Origin: a phage
Sequence record: PZ154897.1
Reading direction: 5' to 3' (one strand)
Length of the DNA: 64,000 nt
Below the pieces are notes generated by a model that saw only the letters and a program-made list of their open reading frames with translations, was not told where the DNA came from and ran no database searches. Shown here piece after piece: positions 8,760 to 43,762 of the stretch (position 1 is the first letter of the stretch; each line of letters begins with the position of its first letter). Made by a program: the position numbers and the translations under genes.

Positions 8760-10325
8760 ATGACTATCAAAACTAAAGCTGAACTTTTGAACAAATGGAA
8801 GCCATTACTGGAAGGTGAAGGTTTACCGGAAATTGCTAATAGCAAACAAGCGATTATCGCTAAAATCTTTGAAAACCAGGAAAAAGATTTCCAGACAGCT
8901 CCGGAATATAAAGACGAAAAAATTGCTCAGGCATTCGGTTCTTTCTTAACAGAAGCTGAAATCGGTGGTGACCACGGTTACAATGCTACTAACATCGCTG
9001 CAGGTCAGACTTCTGGCGCAGTAACTCAGATTGGCCCAGCTGTTATGGGTATGGTACGTCGTGCTATTCCTAACCTGATTGCTTTCGATATTTGCGGTGT
9101 TCAGCCGATGAACAGCCCAACTGGTCAGGTATTCGCACTGCGCGCAGTATATGGTAAAGACCCAATCGCTTCCGGTGCTAAAGAAGCATTCCACCCAATG
9201 TATGGTCCAGATGCAATGTTCTCTGGTCAGGGTGCTGCTAAGAAATTCGCTGCTTTGAAAGCAAGTGATACTCTTGAAGTCGGAACTATTTACACTCACT
9301 TCTTCCAGGAAACTGGTACAGTATATCTGCAAGCTACAGCAGCTAAACAAATTGATTTAGGCGCATCTGACGCAGATAAATTAGATGCTGAAATTAAGAA
9401 ACAAATGGAAGCTGGTGTACTGGTAGAAATCGCTGAAGGTATGGCTACTTCTATCGCTGAACTTCAGGAAGGTTTCAATGGTTCTACCGATAACCCATGG
9501 AATGAAATGGGCTTCCGTATCGATAAACAAGTTATCGAAGCTAAATCTCGCCAGCTGAAAGCTGCTTACTCTATCGAATTAGCACAAGACCTCCGCGCTG
9601 TTCACGGTATGGATGCTGATGCTGAACTGTCTGGTATTCTGGCTACAGAAATCATGCTGGAAATCAACCGTGAAGTTGTTGATTGGATTAACTACTCCGC
9701 TCAGGTTGGTAAATCTGGTATGACCCTGACTCCAGGTTCTAAAGCTGGTGTATTTGACTTCCAGGATCCGATTGATATTCGTGGTGCTCGCTGGGCGGGT
9801 GAATCCTTTAAAGCTCTGTTGTTCCAGATTGACAAAGAAGCAGTTGAAATTGCTCGTCAGACCGGTCGTGGTGAAGGTAACTTCATTATCGCTTCCCGTA
9901 ACGTAGTTAACGTTCTGGCTTCAGTTGATACTGGCATTTCTTATGCTGCACAGGGTCTGGCTACCGGCTTTAACACTGATACTACCAAGTCAGTATTTGC
10001 TGGTGTTCTGGGTGGTAAATACCGTGTATATATCGACCAGTATGCTAAACAGGATTATTTCACCGTAGGTTATAAAGGTCCGAACGAAATGGATGCAGGT
10101 ATTTACTATGCTCCATATGTAGCTCTGACTCCGCTGCGTGGTTCCGATCCGAAGAACTTCCAACCAGTAATGGGATTCAAAACTCGTTATGGTATCGGTA
10201 TCAACCCATTTGCAGAATCCGCTGCTCAGGCTCCGGCTTCTCGCATCCAGAGCGGTATGCCTTCTATTCTGAATAGCCTTGGTAAAAACGCTTACTTCCG
10301 CCGTGTATATGTTAAAGGTATCTAA
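8760..10325 (+). CDS. 23: major capsid protein gp23
   Basis: 521-aa ORF, sequence matches T4 gp23 by recall. Confidence 0.97.
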   Translation: MTIKTKAELLNKWKPLLEGEGLPEIANSKQAIIAKIFENQEKDFQTAPEYKDEKIAQAFGSFLTEAEIGGDHGYNATNIAAGQTSGAVTQIGPAVMGMVRRAIPNLIAFDICGVQPMNSPTGQVFALRAVYGKDPIASGAKEAFHPMYGPDAMFSGQGAAKKFAALKASDTLEVGTIYTHFFQETGTVYLQATAAKQIDLGASDADKLDAEIKKQMEAGVLVEIAEGMATSIAELQEGFNGSTDNPWNEMGFRIDKQVIEAKSRQLKAAYSIELAQDLRAVHGMDADAELSGILATEIMLEINREVVDWINYSAQVGKSGMTLTPGSKAGVFDFQDPIDIRGARWAGESFKALLFQIDKEAVEIARQTGRGEGNFIIASRNVVNVLASVDTGISYAAQGLATGFNTDTTKSVFAGVLGGKYRVYIDQYAKQDYFTVGYKGPNEMDAGIYYAPYVALTPLRGSDPKNFQPVMGFKTRYGIGINPFAESAAQAPASRIQSGMPSILNSLGKNAYFRRVYVKGI

Positions 10326-10408: not shown

Positions 10409-11692
10409 ATGGCTAAAATCAACGAACTTCTGCGCGAATCAACCACAACGAATAGCAACTCAATCGGTCGCCCAAATCTCGTTGCTTTGACTCGCGCTAC
10501 CACTAAATTAATATATTCCGACATTGTAGCAACACAAAGAACTAATCAACCTGTTGCTGCTTTTTACGGTATCAAATACCTTAATCCAGATAACGAATTT
10601 ACTTTTAAAACTGGTGCTACTTACGCTGGCGAAGCTGGGTATGTAGACCGAGAACAAATCACAGAATTAACAGAAGAGTCTAAATTAACTCTCAATAAAG
10701 GCGATTTATTCAAATATAATAATATCGTTTATAAAGTATTAGAAAATACACCATTTGCTGATATTGAAGAAAGCGATTTAGAATTAGCTCTTCAGATTGC
10801 AATTGTTCTTTTAAAGGTTCGTCTATTTTCTGACGCAGCATCAACGAGCAAATTTGAAAGCTCTGATAGCGAAATTGCTGATGCTAGATTCCAGATTAAT
10901 AAATGGCAAACCGCAGTTAAATCTCGTAAACTTAAAACTGGCATTACAGTTGAATTAGCACAAGATTTAGAAGCAAATGGATTCGATGCTCCTAATTTCT
11001 TGGAAGATTTGCTTGCAACTGAAATGGCGGATGAAATCAATAAAGATATTCTACAGTCTTTGATTACAGTATCAAAACGCTATAAAGTTACAGGAATTAC
11101 TGATACTGGATTCATTGATTTGAGTTATGCATCTGCACCTGAAGCCGGTCGTTCATTATACCGAATGGTATGCGAAATGGTTTCACATATCCAGAAAGAA
11201 TCAACTTATACTGCAACGTTCTGTGTTGCTTCAGCTCGTGCTGCTGCGATTCTTGCTGCATCAGGTTGGTTAAAACATAAACCAGAAGATGATAAATATC
11301 TTTCACAAAATGCCTACGGGTTCTTAGCTAATGGTTTACCGCTTTATTGCGATACCAACAGCCCATTAGATTATGTAATCGTTGGCGTAGTAGAAAATAT
11401 TGGTGAAAAAGAAATTGTTGGGTCAATTTTCTATGCTCCGTATACAGAAGGTCTTGACTTAGATGACCCTGAACATGTAGGTGCATTTAAAGTTGTAGTT
11501 GATCCAGAAAGTTTGCAGCCATCTATCGGTTTATTAGTTAGATATGCTTTATCTGCAAATCCTTACACTGTAGCAAAAGATGAAAAAGAAGCAAGAGTAA
11601 TTGATGGTGGAGACATGGATAAAATGGCGGGTCGTTCAGATTTGTCTGTTTTATTAGGTGTTAAACTACCAAAAATTATCGTTGATGAATAA
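10409..11692 (+). CDS. 24: capsid vertex protein gp24
   Basis: 427-aa ORF, gp23-like fold motifs; T4 gp24 length. Confidence 0.93.
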   Translation: MAKINELLRESTTTNSNSIGRPNLVALTRATTKLIYSDIVATQRTNQPVAAFYGIKYLNPDNEFTFKTGATYAGEAGYVDREQITELTEESKLTLNKGDLFKYNNIVYKVLENTPFADIEESDLELALQIAIVLLKVRLFSDAASTSKFESSDSEIADARFQINKWQTAVKSRKLKTGITVELAQDLEANGFDAPNFLEDLLATEMADEINKDILQSLITVSKRYKVTGITDTGFIDLSYASAPEAGRSLYRMVCEMVSHIQKESTYTATFCVASARAAAILAASGWLKHKPEDDKYLSQNAYGFLANGLPLYCDTNSPLDYVIVGVVENIGEKEIVGSIFYAPYTEGLDLDDPEHVGAFKVVVDPESLQPSIGLLVRYALSANPYTVAKDEKEARVIDGGDMDKMAGRSDLSVLLGVKLPKIIVDE

Positions 11693-14444: not shown

Positions 14445-15125
14445 TTATTTTAATGTTACGAAAGAAGAATTGCGTGTTTCACGAATTAAAACTGATCCAT
14501 CACGATTAATGTAATAAATTAAGCTAAATAAAGTTTGGTGTGCTGACGCGTGTTCAAAACTAGTTGGGTGAGATTTCCAATCCGGAGTTTCAGCTATCCA
14601 TTGATAAATCCACCAAGGAACAGTGCAGAATCCTGGATTTTTTCCAATCAGCTGAAGATTCGGACTAAAGTTTTCCGGAAGAGTAAATACAGACGGCTTT
14701 TCAGATTCAATAATCTCAGCTACAGCCTTCTCGAATTTTTCTTCAACAAAAGGAGTATCTTCAATCAAAACATCGGTATTTTCGGGAATTTTATCCATTT
14801 CTACTACTTCAATTTTAATGTCAGATTTAACCGGAGAATCAATCAGAAGTGCTGCTTCTGGATTGACTTCTTCATCGTCATATTTTAATCCCTCTGCGGC
14901 ATCAGCAGCATCAATTAAGTCTTTAATAGATAACCCATCAGTCTCTGGCATAGGTTCACTAGCGAGCTTCTGGAGGGCTTCTTCAATATCAGCAACGATA
15001 TTATCAAAAGATTTATTCTTTTTGACCTTTATACCAAACTGTTCAGCATATTCAGCTAATTTAGCCTTAGCTTCTTTATTATCATCAAGAGCCTTCAGCT
15101 CTGCAATATAATCTTTATCTATCAT
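14445..15125 (-). CDS. inh: Inh, inhibitor of prohead protease
   Basis: 226-aa ORF between hoc and uvsW; synteny and length. Confidence 0.7.
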   Translation of the reverse strand: MIDKDYIAELKALDDNKEAKAKLAEYAEQFGIKVKKNKSFDNIVADIEEALQKLASEPMPETDGLSIKDLIDAADAAEGLKYDDEEVNPEAALLIDSPVKSDIKIEVVEMDKIPENTDVLIEDTPFVEEKFEKAVAEIIESEKPSVFTLPENFSPNLQLIGKNPGFCTVPWWIYQWIAETPDWKSHPTSFEHASAHQTLFSLIYYINRDGSVLIRETRNSSFVTLK

Positions 15126-15138
15126 AATATTTCCTCAG

Positions 15139-15146
15139 TATAAATA
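15139..15146 (+). promoter_or_regulatory. late promoter TATAAATA (PuvsW)
   Basis: Exact late consensus 30 nt upstream of uvsW. Confidence 0.65.
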
Positions 15147-15175
15147 TAGATATATTTATTACATGGTATTTAGAC

Positions 15176-16687
15176 ATGACTGACATTAAAGTACATTTTT
15201 ATGATTTTAGTCACGTGAGAATTGATTGTGAAGAAAGTACATTTCATGAACTCCGTGATTTCTTTAGCTTTGAAGCTGATGGGTATCGTTTTAATCCGAA
15301 GTACAGATATGGCCACTGGGATGGACGAATCCGTCTTTTAGATTATAATCGTCTTCTTCCATTCGGCTTAGTCGGGCAAATTAAAAAGTTCTGTGATAAC
15401 TTTGGCTATAAAGCCTGGATTGACCCACAAATTAACGAAAAAGAAGAATTATCAAGAAAAGATTTTGATGAATGGCTTTCTAAATTAGAAATCTATTCAG
15501 GAAATAAAAGAATTGAACCACACTGGTATCAAAAAGATGCAGTGTTCGAAGGATTAGTTAATCGTCGTAGAATTCTTAATCTTCCAACATCCGCTGGTAA
15601 ATCTTTAATTCAAGCTTTGCTTGCTCGATATTATTTGGAAAATTATGAAGGTAAAATTCTTATCATTGTTCCAACAACTGCTCTGACAACTCAGATGGCT
15701 GATGACTTTGTTGACTATCGTTTATTCAGTCATGCAATGATAAAGAAAATCGGTGGTGGAGCATCAAAAGATGATAAATATAAAAATGATGCACCGGTAA
15801 TTGTTGGTACATGGCAAACTGTAGTAAAACAACCAAAAGAATGGTTCTCACAGTTTGGAATGATGATGAATGATGAATGCCATCTTGCCACAGGAAAAAG
15901 TATTTCATCTATCATATCAGGTTTAAATAACTGCATGTTCAAATTCGGTTTGTCTGGTTCATTACGTGATGGCAAAGCCAATATCATGCAGTATGTTGGA
16001 ATGTTTGGTGAAATATTTAAGCCAGTAACGACTTCTAAATTAATGGAAGATGGACAAGTAACTGAGTTAAAAATTAATAGTATTTTTCTTCGTTATCCCG
16101 ATGAGTTCACTACTAAATTAAAGGGAAAAACTTACCAAGAAGAAATAAAAATTATTACTGGGCTCAGTAAAAGAAATAAATGGATCGCTAAATTAGCTAT
16201 TAAGCTTGCGCAAAAAGATGAAAACGCTTTTGTCATGTTTAAACATGTATCGCATGGTAAAGCTATTTTCGATTTAATTAAAAATGAATACGATAAAGTT
16301 TATTACGTATCAGGGGAAGTTGATACAGAAACCCGCAACGTAATGAAAACCTTAGCTGAAAATGGTAAAGGAATAATTATAGTAGCTAGTTATGGCGTAT
16401 TTTCTACTGGTATTTCAGTTAAAAATCTGCATCATGTTGTTTTAGCGCACGGCGTTAAATCAAAAATCATTGTATTACAAACAATCGGTCGTGTATTACG
16501 TAAGCATGGTTCTAAAACAATCGCAACAGTCTGGGACCTCATTGATGACGCGGGCGTAGTTTCTAAATCAAAAACATCTTCTAAAAAATACTCGCATTTA
16601 AACTATCTTTTAAAACACGGACTTGATCGTATTCAGCGTTATGCTGATGAGAAGTTTAATTATGTGATGAAAGAGGTTAAACTTTGA
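15176..16687 (+). CDS. uvsW: UvsW recombination/repair helicase (SF2)
   Basis: 503-aa ORF; Walker A TSAGKS, DECH box; T4 UvsW length. Confidence 0.9.
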   Translation: MTDIKVHFYDFSHVRIDCEESTFHELRDFFSFEADGYRFNPKYRYGHWDGRIRLLDYNRLLPFGLVGQIKKFCDNFGYKAWIDPQINEKEELSRKDFDEWLSKLEIYSGNKRIEPHWYQKDAVFEGLVNRRRILNLPTSAGKSLIQALLARYYLENYEGKILIIVPTTALTTQMADDFVDYRLFSHAMIKKIGGGASKDDKYKNDAPVIVGTWQTVVKQPKEWFSQFGMMMNDECHLATGKSISSIISGLNNCMFKFGLSGSLRDGKANIMQYVGMFGEIFKPVTTSKLMEDGQVTELKINSIFLRYPDEFTTKLKGKTYQEEIKIITGLSKRNKWIAKLAIKLAQKDENAFVMFKHVSHGKAIFDLIKNEYDKVYYVSGEVDTETRNVMKTLAENGKGIIIVASYGVFSTGISVKNLHHVVLAHGVKSKIIVLQTIGRVLRKHGSKTIATVWDLIDDAGVVSKSKTSSKKYSHLNYLLKHGLDRIQRYADEKFNYVMKEVKL

Positions 16688-17376
16688 ATTATAAATTAAT
16701 ATATGATAATTTAATTAATAGAGCCCAGAATCGGGCTCGCCTTAATGGATACACTGAAACTCATCATATAATTCCTAGATGTATGGGCGGTACAGATGAT
16801 AAGTGTAATTTGGTAGAACTAACAGCTGAAGAGCATTTTATAGCTCATAAACTTTTAGCTAAAATTCATCCAAACCATTACGGTATAATTAAAGCCGTTA
16901 TATGTATGGGGATGAATTCAAAGACTCATGAAAGACACGTTAATAAATCTTACGCCTGGGAACGTCGTAAAATGGCAGAACTTCAATCAGGTGAAGGTAA
17001 TCCATTTTACGGAAAACACCATACGGAAGAACATAAACAATATATGTCAAAACTCATGAAAAATCGTCCAATTACGTGGGGAAGTAAAATTAGTAAAACT
17101 AAAAGAATGAACCCAACAAAATGGACTGAAGAAGCTAAAAGATTGCATTCTATCAATCAATCAGGTAAAAATAATGGCATGTATGGAAGGAAACATTCCG
17201 CTAAATCTATTCAGAAAATTAAAGATAACATGCCAGATAATTCAGGAGCTAATAACCCAGCTGCTAAACCTATAGAAGTAAATGGTGTTAAGTATAAATG
17301 CATGAAAGATGCTTCTAAAGCTACTGGATTATCAATGTACAAACTAAGAATACTTAGAAAAACAGTTAATTTATAA
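16684..17376 (+). CDS. HNH homing endonuclease with NUMOD3-like repeats
   Basis: 230-aa ORF; HHIIPRCMGG...N...EH..AH HNH motif; NPFYGKHHTEEHK repeats; N-terminus paralogous to 43031-43762; TTG start overlapping uvsW stop. Confidence 0.8.
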   Translation: MNYKLIYDNLINRAQNRARLNGYTETHHIIPRCMGGTDDKCNLVELTAEEHFIAHKLLAKIHPNHYGIIKAVICMGMNSKTHERHVNKSYAWERRKMAELQSGEGNPFYGKHHTEEHKQYMSKLMKNRPITWGSKISKTKRMNPTKWTEEAKRLHSINQSGKNNGMYGRKHSAKSIQKIKDNMPDNSGANNPAAKPIEVNGVKYKCMKDASKATGLSMYKLRILRKTVNL

Positions 17377-17390
17377 GGGCTTCGGCCCTT
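17376..17390 (+). terminator. hairpin after HNH gene
   Basis: AGGGC-TTCG-GCCCT stem-loop overlapping stop codon. Confidence 0.5.
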
Positions 17391-17401
17391 TGGAGAAAAA
17401 G

Positions 17402-17632
17402 ATGTTACTAAAATTTAAACAATTTCTTTATGAAGCTTCTATTGATGAATTTATGGGTAAAATTGCCTCTTGTCAAACATTAGAAGGTCTAGAAGAACTT
17501 GAAGCTTATTATAAGAAAAGAGTCAAAGAAACTGAATTAAAAGATACTGATGACATCTCTGTCAGAGATGCTTTGGCAGGAAAAAGAGCTGAATTAGAAG
17601 ATTCAGACGATGAAGTAGAAGAAAGCTTTTAA
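17402..17632 (+). CDS. uvsW.1: UvsW.1 small acidic protein
   Basis: 76 aa from ATG at 17402; matches T4 UvsW.1 length. Confidence 0.7.
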   Translation: MLLKFKQFLYEASIDEFMGKIASCQTLEGLEELEAYYKKRVKETELKDTDDISVRDALAGKRAELEDSDDEVEESF

Positions 17633-17687
17633 ATTAAAAAAGGCCCAACCAAAAAGGAAGGGCCAAAACTATAGACTAAAGGTCACA

Positions 17688-17855
17688 CTATAGCAAAAGT
17701 TGTGTTTCATTTAATTGTTCTTCCGAACTTTCTGAAACTGGTAGTTCTTTAATGTAATTATAGCAAGGCCCAGGATGTACAGGACCTTTGTCTGTTTCAA
17801 CAACCAATGCAGAATCGATTGGAGTTTTACAGACAACACAAATCTTATCTGACAT
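17688..17855 (-). CDS. small Cys-rich (CxxC...PxPC) protein, uvsY.-1 position
   Basis: 55-codon ORF found by manual translation (below ORF-track cutoff); zinc-ribbon-like CVVC...GPC. Confidence 0.45.
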   Translation of the reverse strand: MSDKICVVCKTPIDSALVVETDKGPVHPGPCYNYIKELPVSESSEEQLNETQLLL

Positions 17856-17883
17856 GATTGTCTCCTCTAAATTATATATCTAT

Positions 17884-18108
17884 TTATATAACTCTCATAT
17901 GCATATCAATGCCCATATCTTTAGAATAAAAATATTCATCAAGATATCCGGCAAATTTTCCTTTAATATAAAGGACATCTTCACCACACGGGTGATCGGC
18001 CAGGATACGAATATCCTGACGCTTAAGATTATACTTTTTCATTAAGAATTGAATTTCCGTTTCAAATTCTTCTTCATAATTAAAAGCATCATCAATGCTA
18101 TATCTCAT
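17884..18108 (-). CDS. hypothetical protein (uvsY.-2 position)
   Basis: 74-aa ORF abutting uvsY; synteny. Confidence 0.55.
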   Translation of the reverse strand: MRYSIDDAFNYEEEFETEIQFLMKKYNLKRQDIRILADHPCGEDVLYIKGKFAGYLDEYFYSKDMGIDMHMRVI

Positions 18109-41852: not shown

Positions 41853-43031
41853 TTAAAAGTATTTTTTAAAACTCATCATAACTTTATCATCAACATCATT
41901 ATCAATCTGTGCAACAAGGTAAGATGACAGTTCTACTTCTTGTGGCGCGGATTGAACATTATCAGAATTAAGATATTCACGAATCCAAGGATATGGGTGT
42001 TTAACCGGAGCATCGGTAATTGGGCATGGAAGACCACACTGTTTCATACGAGATACAGTTAAGTAATCAATAAAGCTCCACATGCTATTTGTATTTAATC
42101 CAGGAACATCACCATCTTTAAATAAATGAACTGCCCAGTCTTTTTCTTGACGGTTAACTTCCATGAAAATATCAACTGCTTCTTGTTCACACTCTTGAGC
42201 AATTTTAACCCATTCATCACCATCAGTTCCAAGCTGAAGTTGACGAATAATATATTGAGTGCCTTTAAGGTGAAGCTGCTCATCACGAGCAATGAACTTC
42301 ATAATCTTGGCATTACCTTCCATGATTTCCATGTTCTTATGGAAGTTAAATGTACACGCGAAAGATACGTAAAAACGAATAGCTTCCAGGGCGTTGATTA
42401 CATGAAGGCAAAGATAAAGAGATTTCATTAGTGCTCGTTTAGCTTCGGCTTCTTGTTTAATAGCTCGATTTAAACGAAAATCAGCATCAGGAGATTCTTT
42501 GGCTAGTTCTACAAATTCTTTAGCATTTTCCCATTCACGGGTCTTCTTAAGAACATCATCGTAATAGCGACCAATGGACTCAGCGCGTTTCATAATATCT
42601 TCATCTAATACAATCTCATCAAATACCTTTGACGGATCAGTATAAAGATTTCGCATGATATGGGTATATGAACGACTATGAATAGTTTCACTAAAAGTCC
42701 ATGTAGCAACCCATGTATCAAGACTTGGGTCTGAAATTAACGACATAAGTACAGCAGACGGTGCACGACCCTGAATGCTATCTAGAAGTGATTGATACTT
42801 CAGGTTATTAGTAAAAATATCTTGCTGATATTGAGGAAGCTTGTTAAATTGTGCAGCATCCATCATCAAGTTTACTTCTTCAGGACGCCAGAAAAATGAC
42901 AATTGCTTTTCGGTTAAATCTTCAAAAACTTTATGGCGTTGAATATCATAACGCGCAATACCAAGACCTGAACCGAAGAACATAGGTTCTTTTAAAACAT
43001 CAACTGGATTTGTATTAAAAACTGTAGACAT
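41853..43031 (-). CDS. nrdB: ribonucleotide reductase small subunit NrdB (intronless)
   Basis: Continuous ORF from MSTVFNTNPVD; no intron interruption. Confidence 0.93.
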   Translation of the reverse strand: MSTVFNTNPVDVLKEPMFFGSGLGIARYDIQRHKVFEDLTEKQLSFFWRPEEVNLMMDAAQFNKLPQYQQDIFTNNLKYQSLLDSIQGRAPSAVLMSLISDPSLDTWVATWTFSETIHSRSYTHIMRNLYTDPSKVFDEIVLDEDIMKRAESIGRYYDDVLKKTREWENAKEFVELAKESPDADFRLNRAIKQEAEAKRALMKSLYLCLHVINALEAIRFYVSFACTFNFHKNMEIMEGNAKIMKFIARDEQLHLKGTQYIIRQLQLGTDGDEWVKIAQECEQEAVDIFMEVNRQEKDWAVHLFKDGDVPGLNTNSMWSFIDYLTVSRMKQCGLPCPITDAPVKHPYPWIREYLNSDNVQSAPQEVELSSYLVAQIDNDVDDKVMMSFKKYF

Positions 43032-43762
43032 TAATTTTTCCTCTTTAAAATTCTGCCGTGTTTCCAACCTGGCGGAATAATATCATCTTTACCTATAAGC
43101 GTGCATTCACTTCCATTATTAATCCATTTCTTACCGCGGATTCCTTTATAATCTCTTGGTTTTATTTTGTCAAACTTTGCATCAAGTTGATATGACCATC
43201 TAAATCCATAAGCATATTGAAATTTACCCTCGGCACAATATTTGATATTTGATCCGTTTCCATTAACTGACCGGGACGCTGCCGCAATAGAGTGAAAGGT
43301 TTCTATGAAATCCCCGTCTAATGAGAATTTATGTATTTCTATAGATGGGCATGCATATCTATTCACGTTTGATACATGCTGTTTAGTTTCGTTTTTATGG
43401 TGCTTGCCTAACATTCCTTTAGGATGAGGATTATTTTTCCAATATTTCTTAAAGAACTCAGAATTAGCTTTAGCAAATAATTTTCTGTGTAAGCTGTACA
43501 ATCTGTTATTAATTCTATTGCCAGCTTTATCTGTTGCCATTAACGTTAACGCAGAGGCAAGCCCAAAATGGCCTTCATTTATCTTACATAGTAGTAGATG
43601 AGCTATAAAATGTTCTCTGGCTGTTAATTCAACTAAATTTTCCTTATCATCAGAACCTCCCATACATCTAGGGATTATATGATGTGTCTCTTTATATTCT
43701 GATAAAGATTCCCGAGCCTGAGCTCGGGAAATTAGGTCGTTATAGATTTTTTGATAATTCAT
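43031..43762 (-). CDS. mobE: HNH homing endonuclease, MobE-like, between nrdA and nrdB
   Basis: 243-aa ORF; HHIIPRCMGG...EHFIAH HNH motif; position as T4 mobE. Confidence 0.8.
   Translation of the reverse strand: MNYQKIYNDLISRAQARESLSEYKETHHIIPRCMGGSDDKENLVELTAREHFIAHLLLCKINEGHFGLASALTLMATDKAGNRINNRLYSLHRKLFAKANSEFFKKYWKNNPHPKGMLGKHHKNETKQHVSNVNRYACPSIEIHKFSLDGDFIETFHSIAAASRSVNGNGSNIKYCAEGKFQYAYGFRWSYQLDAKFDKIKPRDYKGIRGKKWINNGSECTLIGKDDIIPPGWKHGRILKRKN

Follow-up and report, generated by a model that had tools for sequence, protein, structure and literature searches.

The T4 protein MobE is a free-standing HNH homing endonuclease encoded between nrdA and nrdB (Wilson & Edgell 2009, PMC2790892). 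Its gene is a promoterless cassette read from the transcript of the upstream gene, and MobE no longer nicks when residues 33-62, its predicted HNH catalytic motif, are deleted (PMC2790892). A second system of interest is segE, an experimentally established homing endonuclease gene with uvsW as its target gene (Table 1 of PMC2988022) and the sole entry at uvsW in that 2010 review of T4 mobile elements. Here we analyze the 3' end of uvsW in a 64,000-nucleotide (nt) stretch of phage DNA (sequence record PZ154897.1), hereafter called the window, where an open reading frame (ORF) of 230 amino acids (aa) fills the junction between uvsW and uvsW.1. We consider it highly probable that this ORF is a free-standing ("intronless") homing endonuclease gene of the HNH family. 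The window is a Tequatrovirus sequence: its locus shares 96-98.5% identity with Tequatrovirus genomes, with NIC06P2 as the closest, and T6, PST, HY03 and ACG-C40 are also matched.

The gene is already in databases, with annotations in T6, PST, HY03 and other phages. The locus is thus present in a classic phage, T6, yet absent from the T4-centred reviews consulted. In the literature on uvsW homing endonucleases, uvsW.1, and Tequatrovirus HNH genes or marker exclusion, no characterisation of the gene was found.

A cassette inside the 3' end of uvsW

In T4, 25 nt separate uvsW from uvsW.1 and no gene lies between them, as a previous reading of the window (the sequence-only reading) had stated. 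The empty site of T4 and OES_C-1 reads ...TAC GTA ATG AAA ACA GTT AAT TTA TAA GGGCTTCGGCCC TTTGGAGAAAAAG ATG... In the window, the left flank stops at ATG AAA (16667-16672) and the right flank restarts at ACA GTT AAT TTA TAA (17362-17376); these two positions define the insert (Table 1). Its boundaries are ambiguous by ~4 nt because an A-run is common to both junctions. The sequence-only reading had described a 230-aa ORF that fills the uvsW-uvsW.1 junction, with a TTG overlapping the uvsW stop. The ORF was found as described, and both neighbours were identified by Pfam. It had also placed the insert "exactly between" the two genes, at an intergenic site colonised by a free-standing homing endonuclease. 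The junction was the right one, and colonisation is supported by the patchy occupancy, linked flank, orthologues and selection described below. However, the insertion point lies 15 nt inside the uvsW coding sequence, outside the 25-nt spacer.

The insertion exchanges one gene tail for another. The last four codons and the stop of uvsW are supplied by the insert, with EVKL* replacing TVNL* as the UvsW tail. The substitute tail includes a Shine-Dalgarno sequence, GAGG (16673-16676), 7 nt 5' of the TTG start of the endonuclease ORF, and this TTG shares its last two bases with the TGA stop of uvsW. At the right junction, the former TVNL* codons and stop of uvsW now encode the C-terminal end of the endonuclease. 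Between the two tail copies, 14/21 nt are identical (counted from the sequences). Because the endonuclease ORF exits through the original codons and stop of uvsW, both the spacer hairpin and the ribosome-binding site of uvsW.1 remain intact; the uvsW.1 Shine-Dalgarno sequence, GGAG (17392-17395), lies 3' of the hairpin and is unaltered by the insertion.

Similar junctions were detected in other phages. The left junction ATGAAAGAGGT...TTGA is also found in the Dhakavirus phages UP19 and Bp7 and in a metagenome locus (L009). In the Dhakavirus empty site of JS98, uvsW ends ATG AAA CAG GTG GAT TTA TGA (MKQVDL*). In the carrier UP19, the left junction is ATG AAA GAG GTC CAA ATT TGA (KEVQI*) and the endonuclease ends MKQVDL*, the same as JS98. 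To judge from these junctions, the tail-swap arrangement is clearer in Dhakavirus than in the window. In Jiaodavirus, where Roth16 and Metamorpho were compared with Mineola, start and stop overlap as TATGA at either junction, and the crossover cannot be placed more precisely than the last six codons.

Insert-borne UvsW end codons that double as a ribosome-binding site, and a start that overlaps the new stop, are common to the carriers of four genera. Read-out through the original tail and stop of the host gene is found in Tequatrovirus and Dhakavirus and is ambiguous in Jiaodavirus. A further common feature of the carriers is a hairpin ~35-60 nt into the ORF, conserved in structure and variable in sequence. 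A tentative interpretation, which we hold with less than even confidence, is that the tail-swap cassette is a specialised design rather than a chance landing, and that DNA-binding modules are exchanged in place. If this is true, the 3' end of uvsW would be a long-lived, multi-genus docking site for endonuclease genes, and a tractable system to study the entry of free-standing endonuclease genes into coding sequence without an intron.

A different endonuclease gene was observed at the same site in the Dhakavirus phages Bp7 (NC_019500; L011, 1497-2279) and UGJNEcP4. The gene shares the left junction (KEVQL*, TTG start), and its product is a 261-aa HNH protein that is similar at the N-terminus, lacks NUMOD3 and has an unrelated C-terminal part. 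This arrangement suggests that DNA-binding modules were swapped in place while the junction machinery was kept.

One might consider that the cassette resembles an intron or intein, with uvsW as one interrupted gene and its two halves rejoined. Two annotations point in this direction: the record of the Klebsiella phage Metamorpho joins a helicase coding sequence (CDS) across the endonuclease gene, and an older T4 annotation took uvsW and uvsW.1 as one 587-aa protein. However, resequencing and crystallography show two distinct ORFs, uvsW and uvsW.1, in T4 and five relatives (PMC1524935), and at empty sites uvsW ends in a stop codon and uvsW.1 then has its own start. Furthermore, the endonuclease has a start codon of its own and a reading frame other than that of uvsW, and an Rfam search of positions 15000-18000 yielded no group I or group II intron nor any other family. 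An intron or intein is therefore extremely unlikely, and the idea that the insert splits one 587-aa uvsW gene was rejected, given the two distinct ORFs of T4 and its relatives. A separate ORF with its own start, between two genes that are already separate at empty sites and without an intron match, is what a free-standing gene looks like.

Two database records show unusual gene structures around the insert. In the T6 record MH550421 (L003, 1498-3005), uvsW is split into "uvsW" and "uvsW-B" 5' of the insert; in the Metamorpho record MT701588 (L007, 942-3363), the endonuclease gene spanned by the joined helicase CDS is itself labelled GIY-YIG. Both the T6 split and the Metamorpho joined CDS look like annotation or sequencing artefacts.

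Patchy occupancy and a diverged flank

The sequence-only reading had proposed a comparison of the uvsW-uvsW.1 junction across relatives. A 140-nt query across the T4 empty junction matched 499 phage records, and 470 of the best matches were at least 99% identical. The match was contiguous in 450/499 records, while in 49/499 it began only at query nt 52, at AAAACAGTTAAT. The 49 records with an interrupted match are those that carry the full insert (~10%), including T6, PST and HY03; PST was checked. No third state of the junction was seen among the 499 Tequatrovirus records. Hence, presence and absence of the gene are polymorphic at a fixed locus among close relatives. One carrier, BF15 (MW822007, 103318-104006), has an insert that aligns over 689 nt, not 693 nt; it may have a 4-nt deletion that frameshifts the endonuclease, and is a candidate decaying copy.

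A protein search detected 13 clusters at 55-98% identity with full-length coverage, then a gap, and the next homologues at 35-45%. All orthologues with readable context sit between uvsW and uvsW.1, with a start that overlaps the uvsW stop. The phages that carry them belong to Tequatrovirus, Jiaodavirus (Roth16, Metamorpho), Dhakavirus (UP19) and Gualtarvirus (Rgz1), and two are metagenome contigs. The orthologues align from residue 1, and their start codon is ATG or TTG. The insert is present in 13 of ~138 Klebsiella phage records that match a Roth16 query, and in 7 Dhakavirus-type records that match a UP19 query.

When the window is compared with T4, identity is 97-99% across inh, the uvsW body, uvsW.1 and the sequence that follows, except in two patches of uvsW, one at each end of the gene. 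Relevant observations on these patches can be summarized as follows:

(i). The 3' patch adjoins the HNH insert and the divergence is one-sided: it lies upstream only, and identity to T4 is ~99% 3' of the insert. In this patch, the window is 73.2% identical to T4, 96.9% to T6 and 92.1% to OES_C-1, and T4 and T6 are 74.8% identical to each other.

(ii). The 5' patch adjoins the segE site. Here the window is 78.7% identical to both T4 and T6 and 94.0% to OES_C-1, and T4 and T6 are 98.7% identical. Because segE is a proven homing gene that targets uvsW, this patch calibrates the signature found at the other end of the gene.

(iii). Each patch follows its own endonuclease gene, as judged from five genomes whose uvsW bodies are ~98% identical. 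T6 and PST carry segE and the HNH gene, T4 carries segE only, the window carries the HNH gene only, and OES_C-1 carries neither. In T4 and T6, segE lies between inh and uvsW, on the side of uvsW where the sequence-only reading had located it in T4; that reading was also correct that segE is absent from the window.

(iv). The 3' patch is made of two blocks. Block A (16558-16586) is linker sequence with non-synonymous changes; in block B (16596-16672) there are ten differences, and seven of them are silent third-position changes within the last 28 nt. When block B alone was used as a megablast query, exactly the 49 carriers were matched and 0/450 empty-site records; linkage between this 77-nt variant and the insert is therefore complete.

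(v). Upstream divergence is also seen in other genera. Between Roth16 and Mineola (Jiaodavirus), identity drops to 72-82% between positions -130 and -40, compared with a background of 95-100%, and between UP19 and JS98 (Dhakavirus) it is 73-82% between -180 and -30. A co-inherited flank of the kind expected for a free-standing homing gene is thus found, with a linked 77-nt variant and one-sided divergence in three genera.

(vi). The empty-site genome OES_C-1 (PQ553088; L002, 2780-2905) has a window-like block A, while its block B (last ~85 nt) and junction are T4-type. It may be either a recombinant of carrier and non-carrier alleles or the outcome of precise loss of the insert.

We infer that the 3' patch may be both a co-conversion tract and an immune form of the target. 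Directly 5' of the insertion point, AAATTTAAYTACGTAATGAAA is common to the empty sites of three genera. The hexamer TACGTA within AAATTTAAYTACGTAATGAAA is invariant in the empty sites of the three genera and altered in 7/8 carrier lineages; the eighth, UP19, shows a change of the AAA codon to CGT instead. The best candidate for the core of the recognised target is, most likely, AAATTTAAYTACGTAATGAAA. The comparative data are unusually clean (499 genomes, perfect linkage, three genera and an adjacent segE control) and lead to this concrete target prediction.

Table 1. Positions in the window of the features discussed in the text.
Feature	Position	Strand	Basis or comment
T4-type late promoter consensus TATAAATA	15139..15146	+	exact-match scan; 30 nt upstream of uvsW
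uvsW helicase gene, 503 aa	15176..16687	+	Pfam UvsW_N 5.2e-43, ResIII, DEAD, Helicase_C
Diverged 5' uvsW patch, tracks segE presence/absence	15185..15334	+	window-T4 78.7%; adjoins segE site
Diverged 3' uvsW patch, linked to endonuclease gene	16543..16672	+	window-T4 73.2%; adjoins HNH insert
Inserted cassette, 689 bp	16673..17361	+	alignment with empty sites of T4 and OES_C-1
Insert-borne substitute uvsW tail, GAG GTT AAA CTT TGA (EVKL*)	16673..16687	+	sequence
HNH homing endonuclease ORF, 230 aa, TTG start	16684..17376	+	PHROG 655 "homing endonuclease" 1.6e-61
G+C-rich hairpin GAGCCC-AGAAUC-GGGCUC	16721..16738	+	~40 nt into ORF; no U tract after
HNH catalytic motif, residues 25-55, E-T-HH-IIPRCMGG...N-LVEL...EH-FIAH	16756..16848	+	invariant residues, profile, Foldseek
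First NUMOD3 repeat, residues 94-122	16963..17049	+	Pfam NUMOD3; second repeat around residues 160-180
I-TevI-like DNA-binding region, residues 157-216, NUMOD3 helix and helix-turn-helix	17152..17331	+	phmmer against PDB 1I3J, E=0.006
Original last four uvsW codons and stop, ACA GTT AAT TTA TAA (TVNL*)	17362..17376	+	identical to T4 uvsW 3' end
Resident spacer hairpin GGGC-UUCG-GCCC	17377..17388	+	identical in T4 and OES_C-1; folded
uvsW.1, 76 aa	17402..17632	+	Pfam UvsW-1 1.5e-30; 98.8% identity to T4
Paralogous HNH endonuclease gene between nrdA and nrdB	43031..43762	-	mobE-like N-terminal domain; NUMOD1-containing C-terminal part

The sequence-only reading had also given segD as absent from the window; on this putative absence, the ORF list shows two ORFs, at 8760..10325 and 10409..11692, separated by just 83 nt.

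Protein, selection and expression

The sequence-only reading had described the product as an HNH protein with NUMOD3 repeats, and domain searches agree: besides the PHROG 655 match, Pfam NUMOD3 is found in two stretches (7.7e-14), and the DNA-binding domain of I-TevI gives a weak match. The conserved His...Asn...His motif of the HNH (beta-beta-alpha-metal) superfamily is present (HH27-28, N42, H51, H55), and residues H28, P31, G36, N42, L46, H51 and H55 are invariant in the 69 homologues aligned. A family profile matched PDB sequences of 1i3j (1.7e-7), the HNH domain of McrA (2.4e-4) and Cas8f-HNH (0.011). A confident AlphaFold model built from the alignment of the 69 homologues has a mean predicted local distance difference test (pLDDT) score of 86.5, with strands at residues 25-28 and 43-46, a helix at 48-61, short helices, and then a C-terminal beta-hairpin and a helix-turn-helix. 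In Foldseek, the top local matches were 1i3j, the DNA-binding domain of I-TevI (probability 0.99), and Cas8f-fused HNH domains (0.96). On sequence grounds, the protein is of the T-even "mob" type, with a nuclease domain paralogous to that of MobE and a DNA-binding region of the NUMOD3 / I-TevI kind.

Current labels of the gene are diverse: "homing endonuclease", "hypothetical protein", "NUMOD3 motif protein", "putative mobile endonuclease E", "mobD/MobE" (in PST) and "group I intron endonuclease". Assignment to the GIY-YIG or group I intron endonucleases was rejected: the N-terminus is HNH and has no GIY-YIG motif, and TIGR01453, the I-TevI-type family, covers model positions 95-192 only, which correspond to the DNA-binding part, with 30 bits against a cut-off of 56. 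Labels of this kind are therefore misleading, in the orthologues as well, and the TIGR01453 match to the DNA-binding part accounts for them. Our analysis corrects "MobE", "mobD", "GIY-YIG" and "group I intron endonuclease", as well as the helicase CDS joined across the insert.

The relationship with the HNH gene between nrdA and nrdB, which the sequence-only reading had called a paralogue whose first ~60 residues are near-identical in pattern, admits some precision. The two proteins are clearly related rather than near-identical (49% identity over the first 134 aa, E 2e-36); the paralogue is on the minus strand and identity is 73% (44/60) over residues 1-60, decreasing to 36% over 61-130 and 22% over 131-225. 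The uvsW-site protein is not a MobE orthologue, despite the "MobE/mobD" labels of PST: the locus differs, as do the C-terminal two-thirds of the protein, and similarity is confined to the N-terminal ~130 residues. Neither is the paralogue T4 mobE itself, because its match to T4 mobE (95%) is limited to the first 168 nt. The remainder of the paralogue, with a NUMOD1 domain, is a different C-terminal module that is found full-length in 55 records. The possibility that the paralogue is Hef was discarded, as Hef is described in review as unique and non-HNH and the paralogue has an HNH motif.

Comparison with T6 yielded a ratio of non-synonymous to synonymous substitution (dN/dS) of 0.06, at a dS of 0.146; against other genera the ratio was 0.06-0.30, and the ORFs are intact. 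These values indicate that the endonuclease ORF is under purifying selection.

Selection bears on two rival explanations. One is that the gene is an inactive or decaying relic of a single invasion in a T6-like ancestor, inherited vertically, and that the diverged flank is a recombination scar. The carrier inserts do cluster tightly in two groups, with 99.1-99.9% and 96.7-97.1% identity to the window, and the weak TTG start together with a sub-threshold Pfam HNH score could suggest low activity. Several observations are, however, hard to reconcile with a relic: dN/dS between the two carrier groups is low, as given above, catalytic residues are invariant, and three more genera show patchy occupancy as well. 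In addition, carrier state is uncoupled from the neighbouring sequence, as the flanks of the window are as near to T4 as to T6 and all four combinations of segE and the HNH gene are found. We deem a relic improbable.

Strong purifying selection would also fit a domesticated nuclease, kept because it benefits the phage through exclusion of competitor markers, damage to co-infecting genomes, or tuning of UvsW/UvsW.1 expression. Homing endonucleases have been published to aid phage competition (PMC11620839; marker exclusion, PMC2988022). In Jiaodavirus and Dhakavirus, uvsW and uvsW.1 are translationally coupled by an ATGA overlap, and the insert preserves the coupling chain. Moreover, uvsW is bracketed by segE and the HNH gene in T6 and PST. 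Against domestication, 90% of the Tequatrovirus records do not have the gene. The sequence offers nothing to separate domestication from ordinary homing, and both readings are compatible; as the explanation of the locus, domestication seems to us about as improbable as a relic.

Our identification of the gene as a free-standing homing endonuclease must also face several points that weigh against it. The 49 carrier records are not 49 independent events, because RefSeq/GenBank duplicates and close isolates are included. Divergence across genera was measured in a single pair of carrier and non-carrier for each genus. The linker of block A is variable and occurs without the insert in OES_C-1, and the diverged flank could merely mark recombination of a foreign segment, not immunity. 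As a single sequence, the protein scores 16.8 bits with Pfam HNH (E=0.0079), below the gathering score of 21.4. Lastly, no report of cleavage, nicking or inheritance was found in the literature for this protein or its orthologues.

Concerning expression, the exact-match scan for T4-type late promoters detected no match on the plus strand near the locus other than the one upstream of uvsW, and none inside the insert. In a sigma-70-like scan, sites were no commoner than in shuffled sequence. Because of both results, the gene looks like a promoterless cassette on the uvsW transcript, and the late promoter upstream of uvsW is the presumed source of the transcript that carries it.

The G+C-rich hairpin near the start of the ORF occupies the place where mobE has its published internal terminator. 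In the mobE-like gene of the window, a terminator hairpin, UUCCCGAGC/GCUCGGGAA, is followed by a U tract (near 43700-43725). A U tract was found in this gene only, not in the uvsW-site genes, and the uvsW-site hairpin is therefore probably not a terminator. Hairpins were located ~35-60 nt into each endonuclease ORF (loci L004, L005, L006, L009, L010 and L011): Roth16, UP19, Rgz1, Bp7 and the metagenome loci L009 and L010 have one at the equivalent 5' place, with a different stem sequence in each. Fold z-scores ranged from -2.0 to -4.2 in the six sequences folded, and those of L009 and L010 were identified by eye in the alignment. When nine 5' regions were folded with RNAalifold, no consensus pairs emerged because the hairpin registers differ, and conservation of the hairpin thus relies on the individual folds. 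The window, UP19 and Bp7 have minimum-energy folds in which a CCUC-like stretch immediately 3' of the hairpin is paired with the Shine-Dalgarno sequence. A tentative interpretation is that the 5' hairpin may hide the ribosome-binding site. Sequestration of the ribosome-binding site has been described for mobE of phage Aeh1 (as cited in PMC2988022), and the pairing found here is reminiscent of it, a resemblance that we consider a lead.

Proposed homing mechanism and comparison with known systems

If the gene is a free-standing homing endonuclease, the following sequence of events can be proposed. The endonuclease gene would be read from the uvsW late transcript, without a promoter of its own, and its output would be kept low by the TTG start, start/stop coupling and a 5' hairpin that may occlude the Shine-Dalgarno sequence. 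In a mixed infection with an empty-site relative, the protein would bind DNA via its NUMOD3 helices and helix-turn-helix and would then nick or cut the empty-site uvsW 3' end, two steps proposed from knowledge of the family. Nicking of the empty-site uvsW 3' end is the probable activity. The phage recombination system would repair the break from the carrier genome, and the cassette together with ~130-190 nt of upstream uvsW would be copied in. The mostly silent upstream variant would make the carrier allele resistant.

T4 MobE is the nearest point of comparison. The N-terminal HNH domain is shared (73% over 60 residues to the mobE-like protein of the window), both genes are free-standing, apparently promoterless cassettes read from the upstream gene with a start that overlaps the upstream stop, and both have a G+C-rich hairpin at the same 5' coding position. 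MobE has its target in a conserved gene that flanks the insertion, and the same is predicted for the uvsW-site gene. The differences are, however, considerable. The uvsW-site gene lies at uvsW/uvsW.1 and not at nrdA/nrdB, begins with TTG instead of ATG, has a hairpin without a U tract, and is inserted inside the end of a coding sequence. Its product has two NUMOD3 repeats and an I-TevI-like helix-turn-helix. Furthermore, the MobE target is downstream of the gene (nrdB nt 122-126), while the predicted target of the uvsW-site protein is upstream.

With I-TevI (PDB 1I3J) the resemblance is in the DNA-binding part, where residues 157-216 align with the minor-groove helix and the helix-turn-helix. 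I-TevI is, however, intron-encoded and has a GIY-YIG catalytic domain, whereas the uvsW-site protein is HNH. SegE, whose activity has been experimentally documented (as cited in PMC2988022), approaches the same target gene, uvsW, from the other end; the adjoining diverged patch of uvsW tracks the presence of the gene, and SegE coexists with the uvsW-site HNH gene in T6 and PST. Unlike the uvsW-site protein, it is a GIY-YIG enzyme of an unrelated nuclease family, and it is absent from the window.

Free-standing HNH genes inside a host coding sequence, with no intron or intein and with host function kept, are known in mobA/gene 60-39 of T4 and mobE/nrdA of Aeh1 (PMC2988022). In both, the host protein is split into two functional pieces. 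UvsW, in contrast, stays a single polypeptide because its last four codons were displaced yet replaced by an insert-borne copy. Altogether, we consider the locus mildly unusual: the insertion lies within the end of a coding sequence and swaps its tail, an arrangement conserved across four genera, and the gene is otherwise ordinary in kind. The 3' end of uvsW is one more occupied site in the catalogue of T-even homing endonucleases, not a new kind of system.

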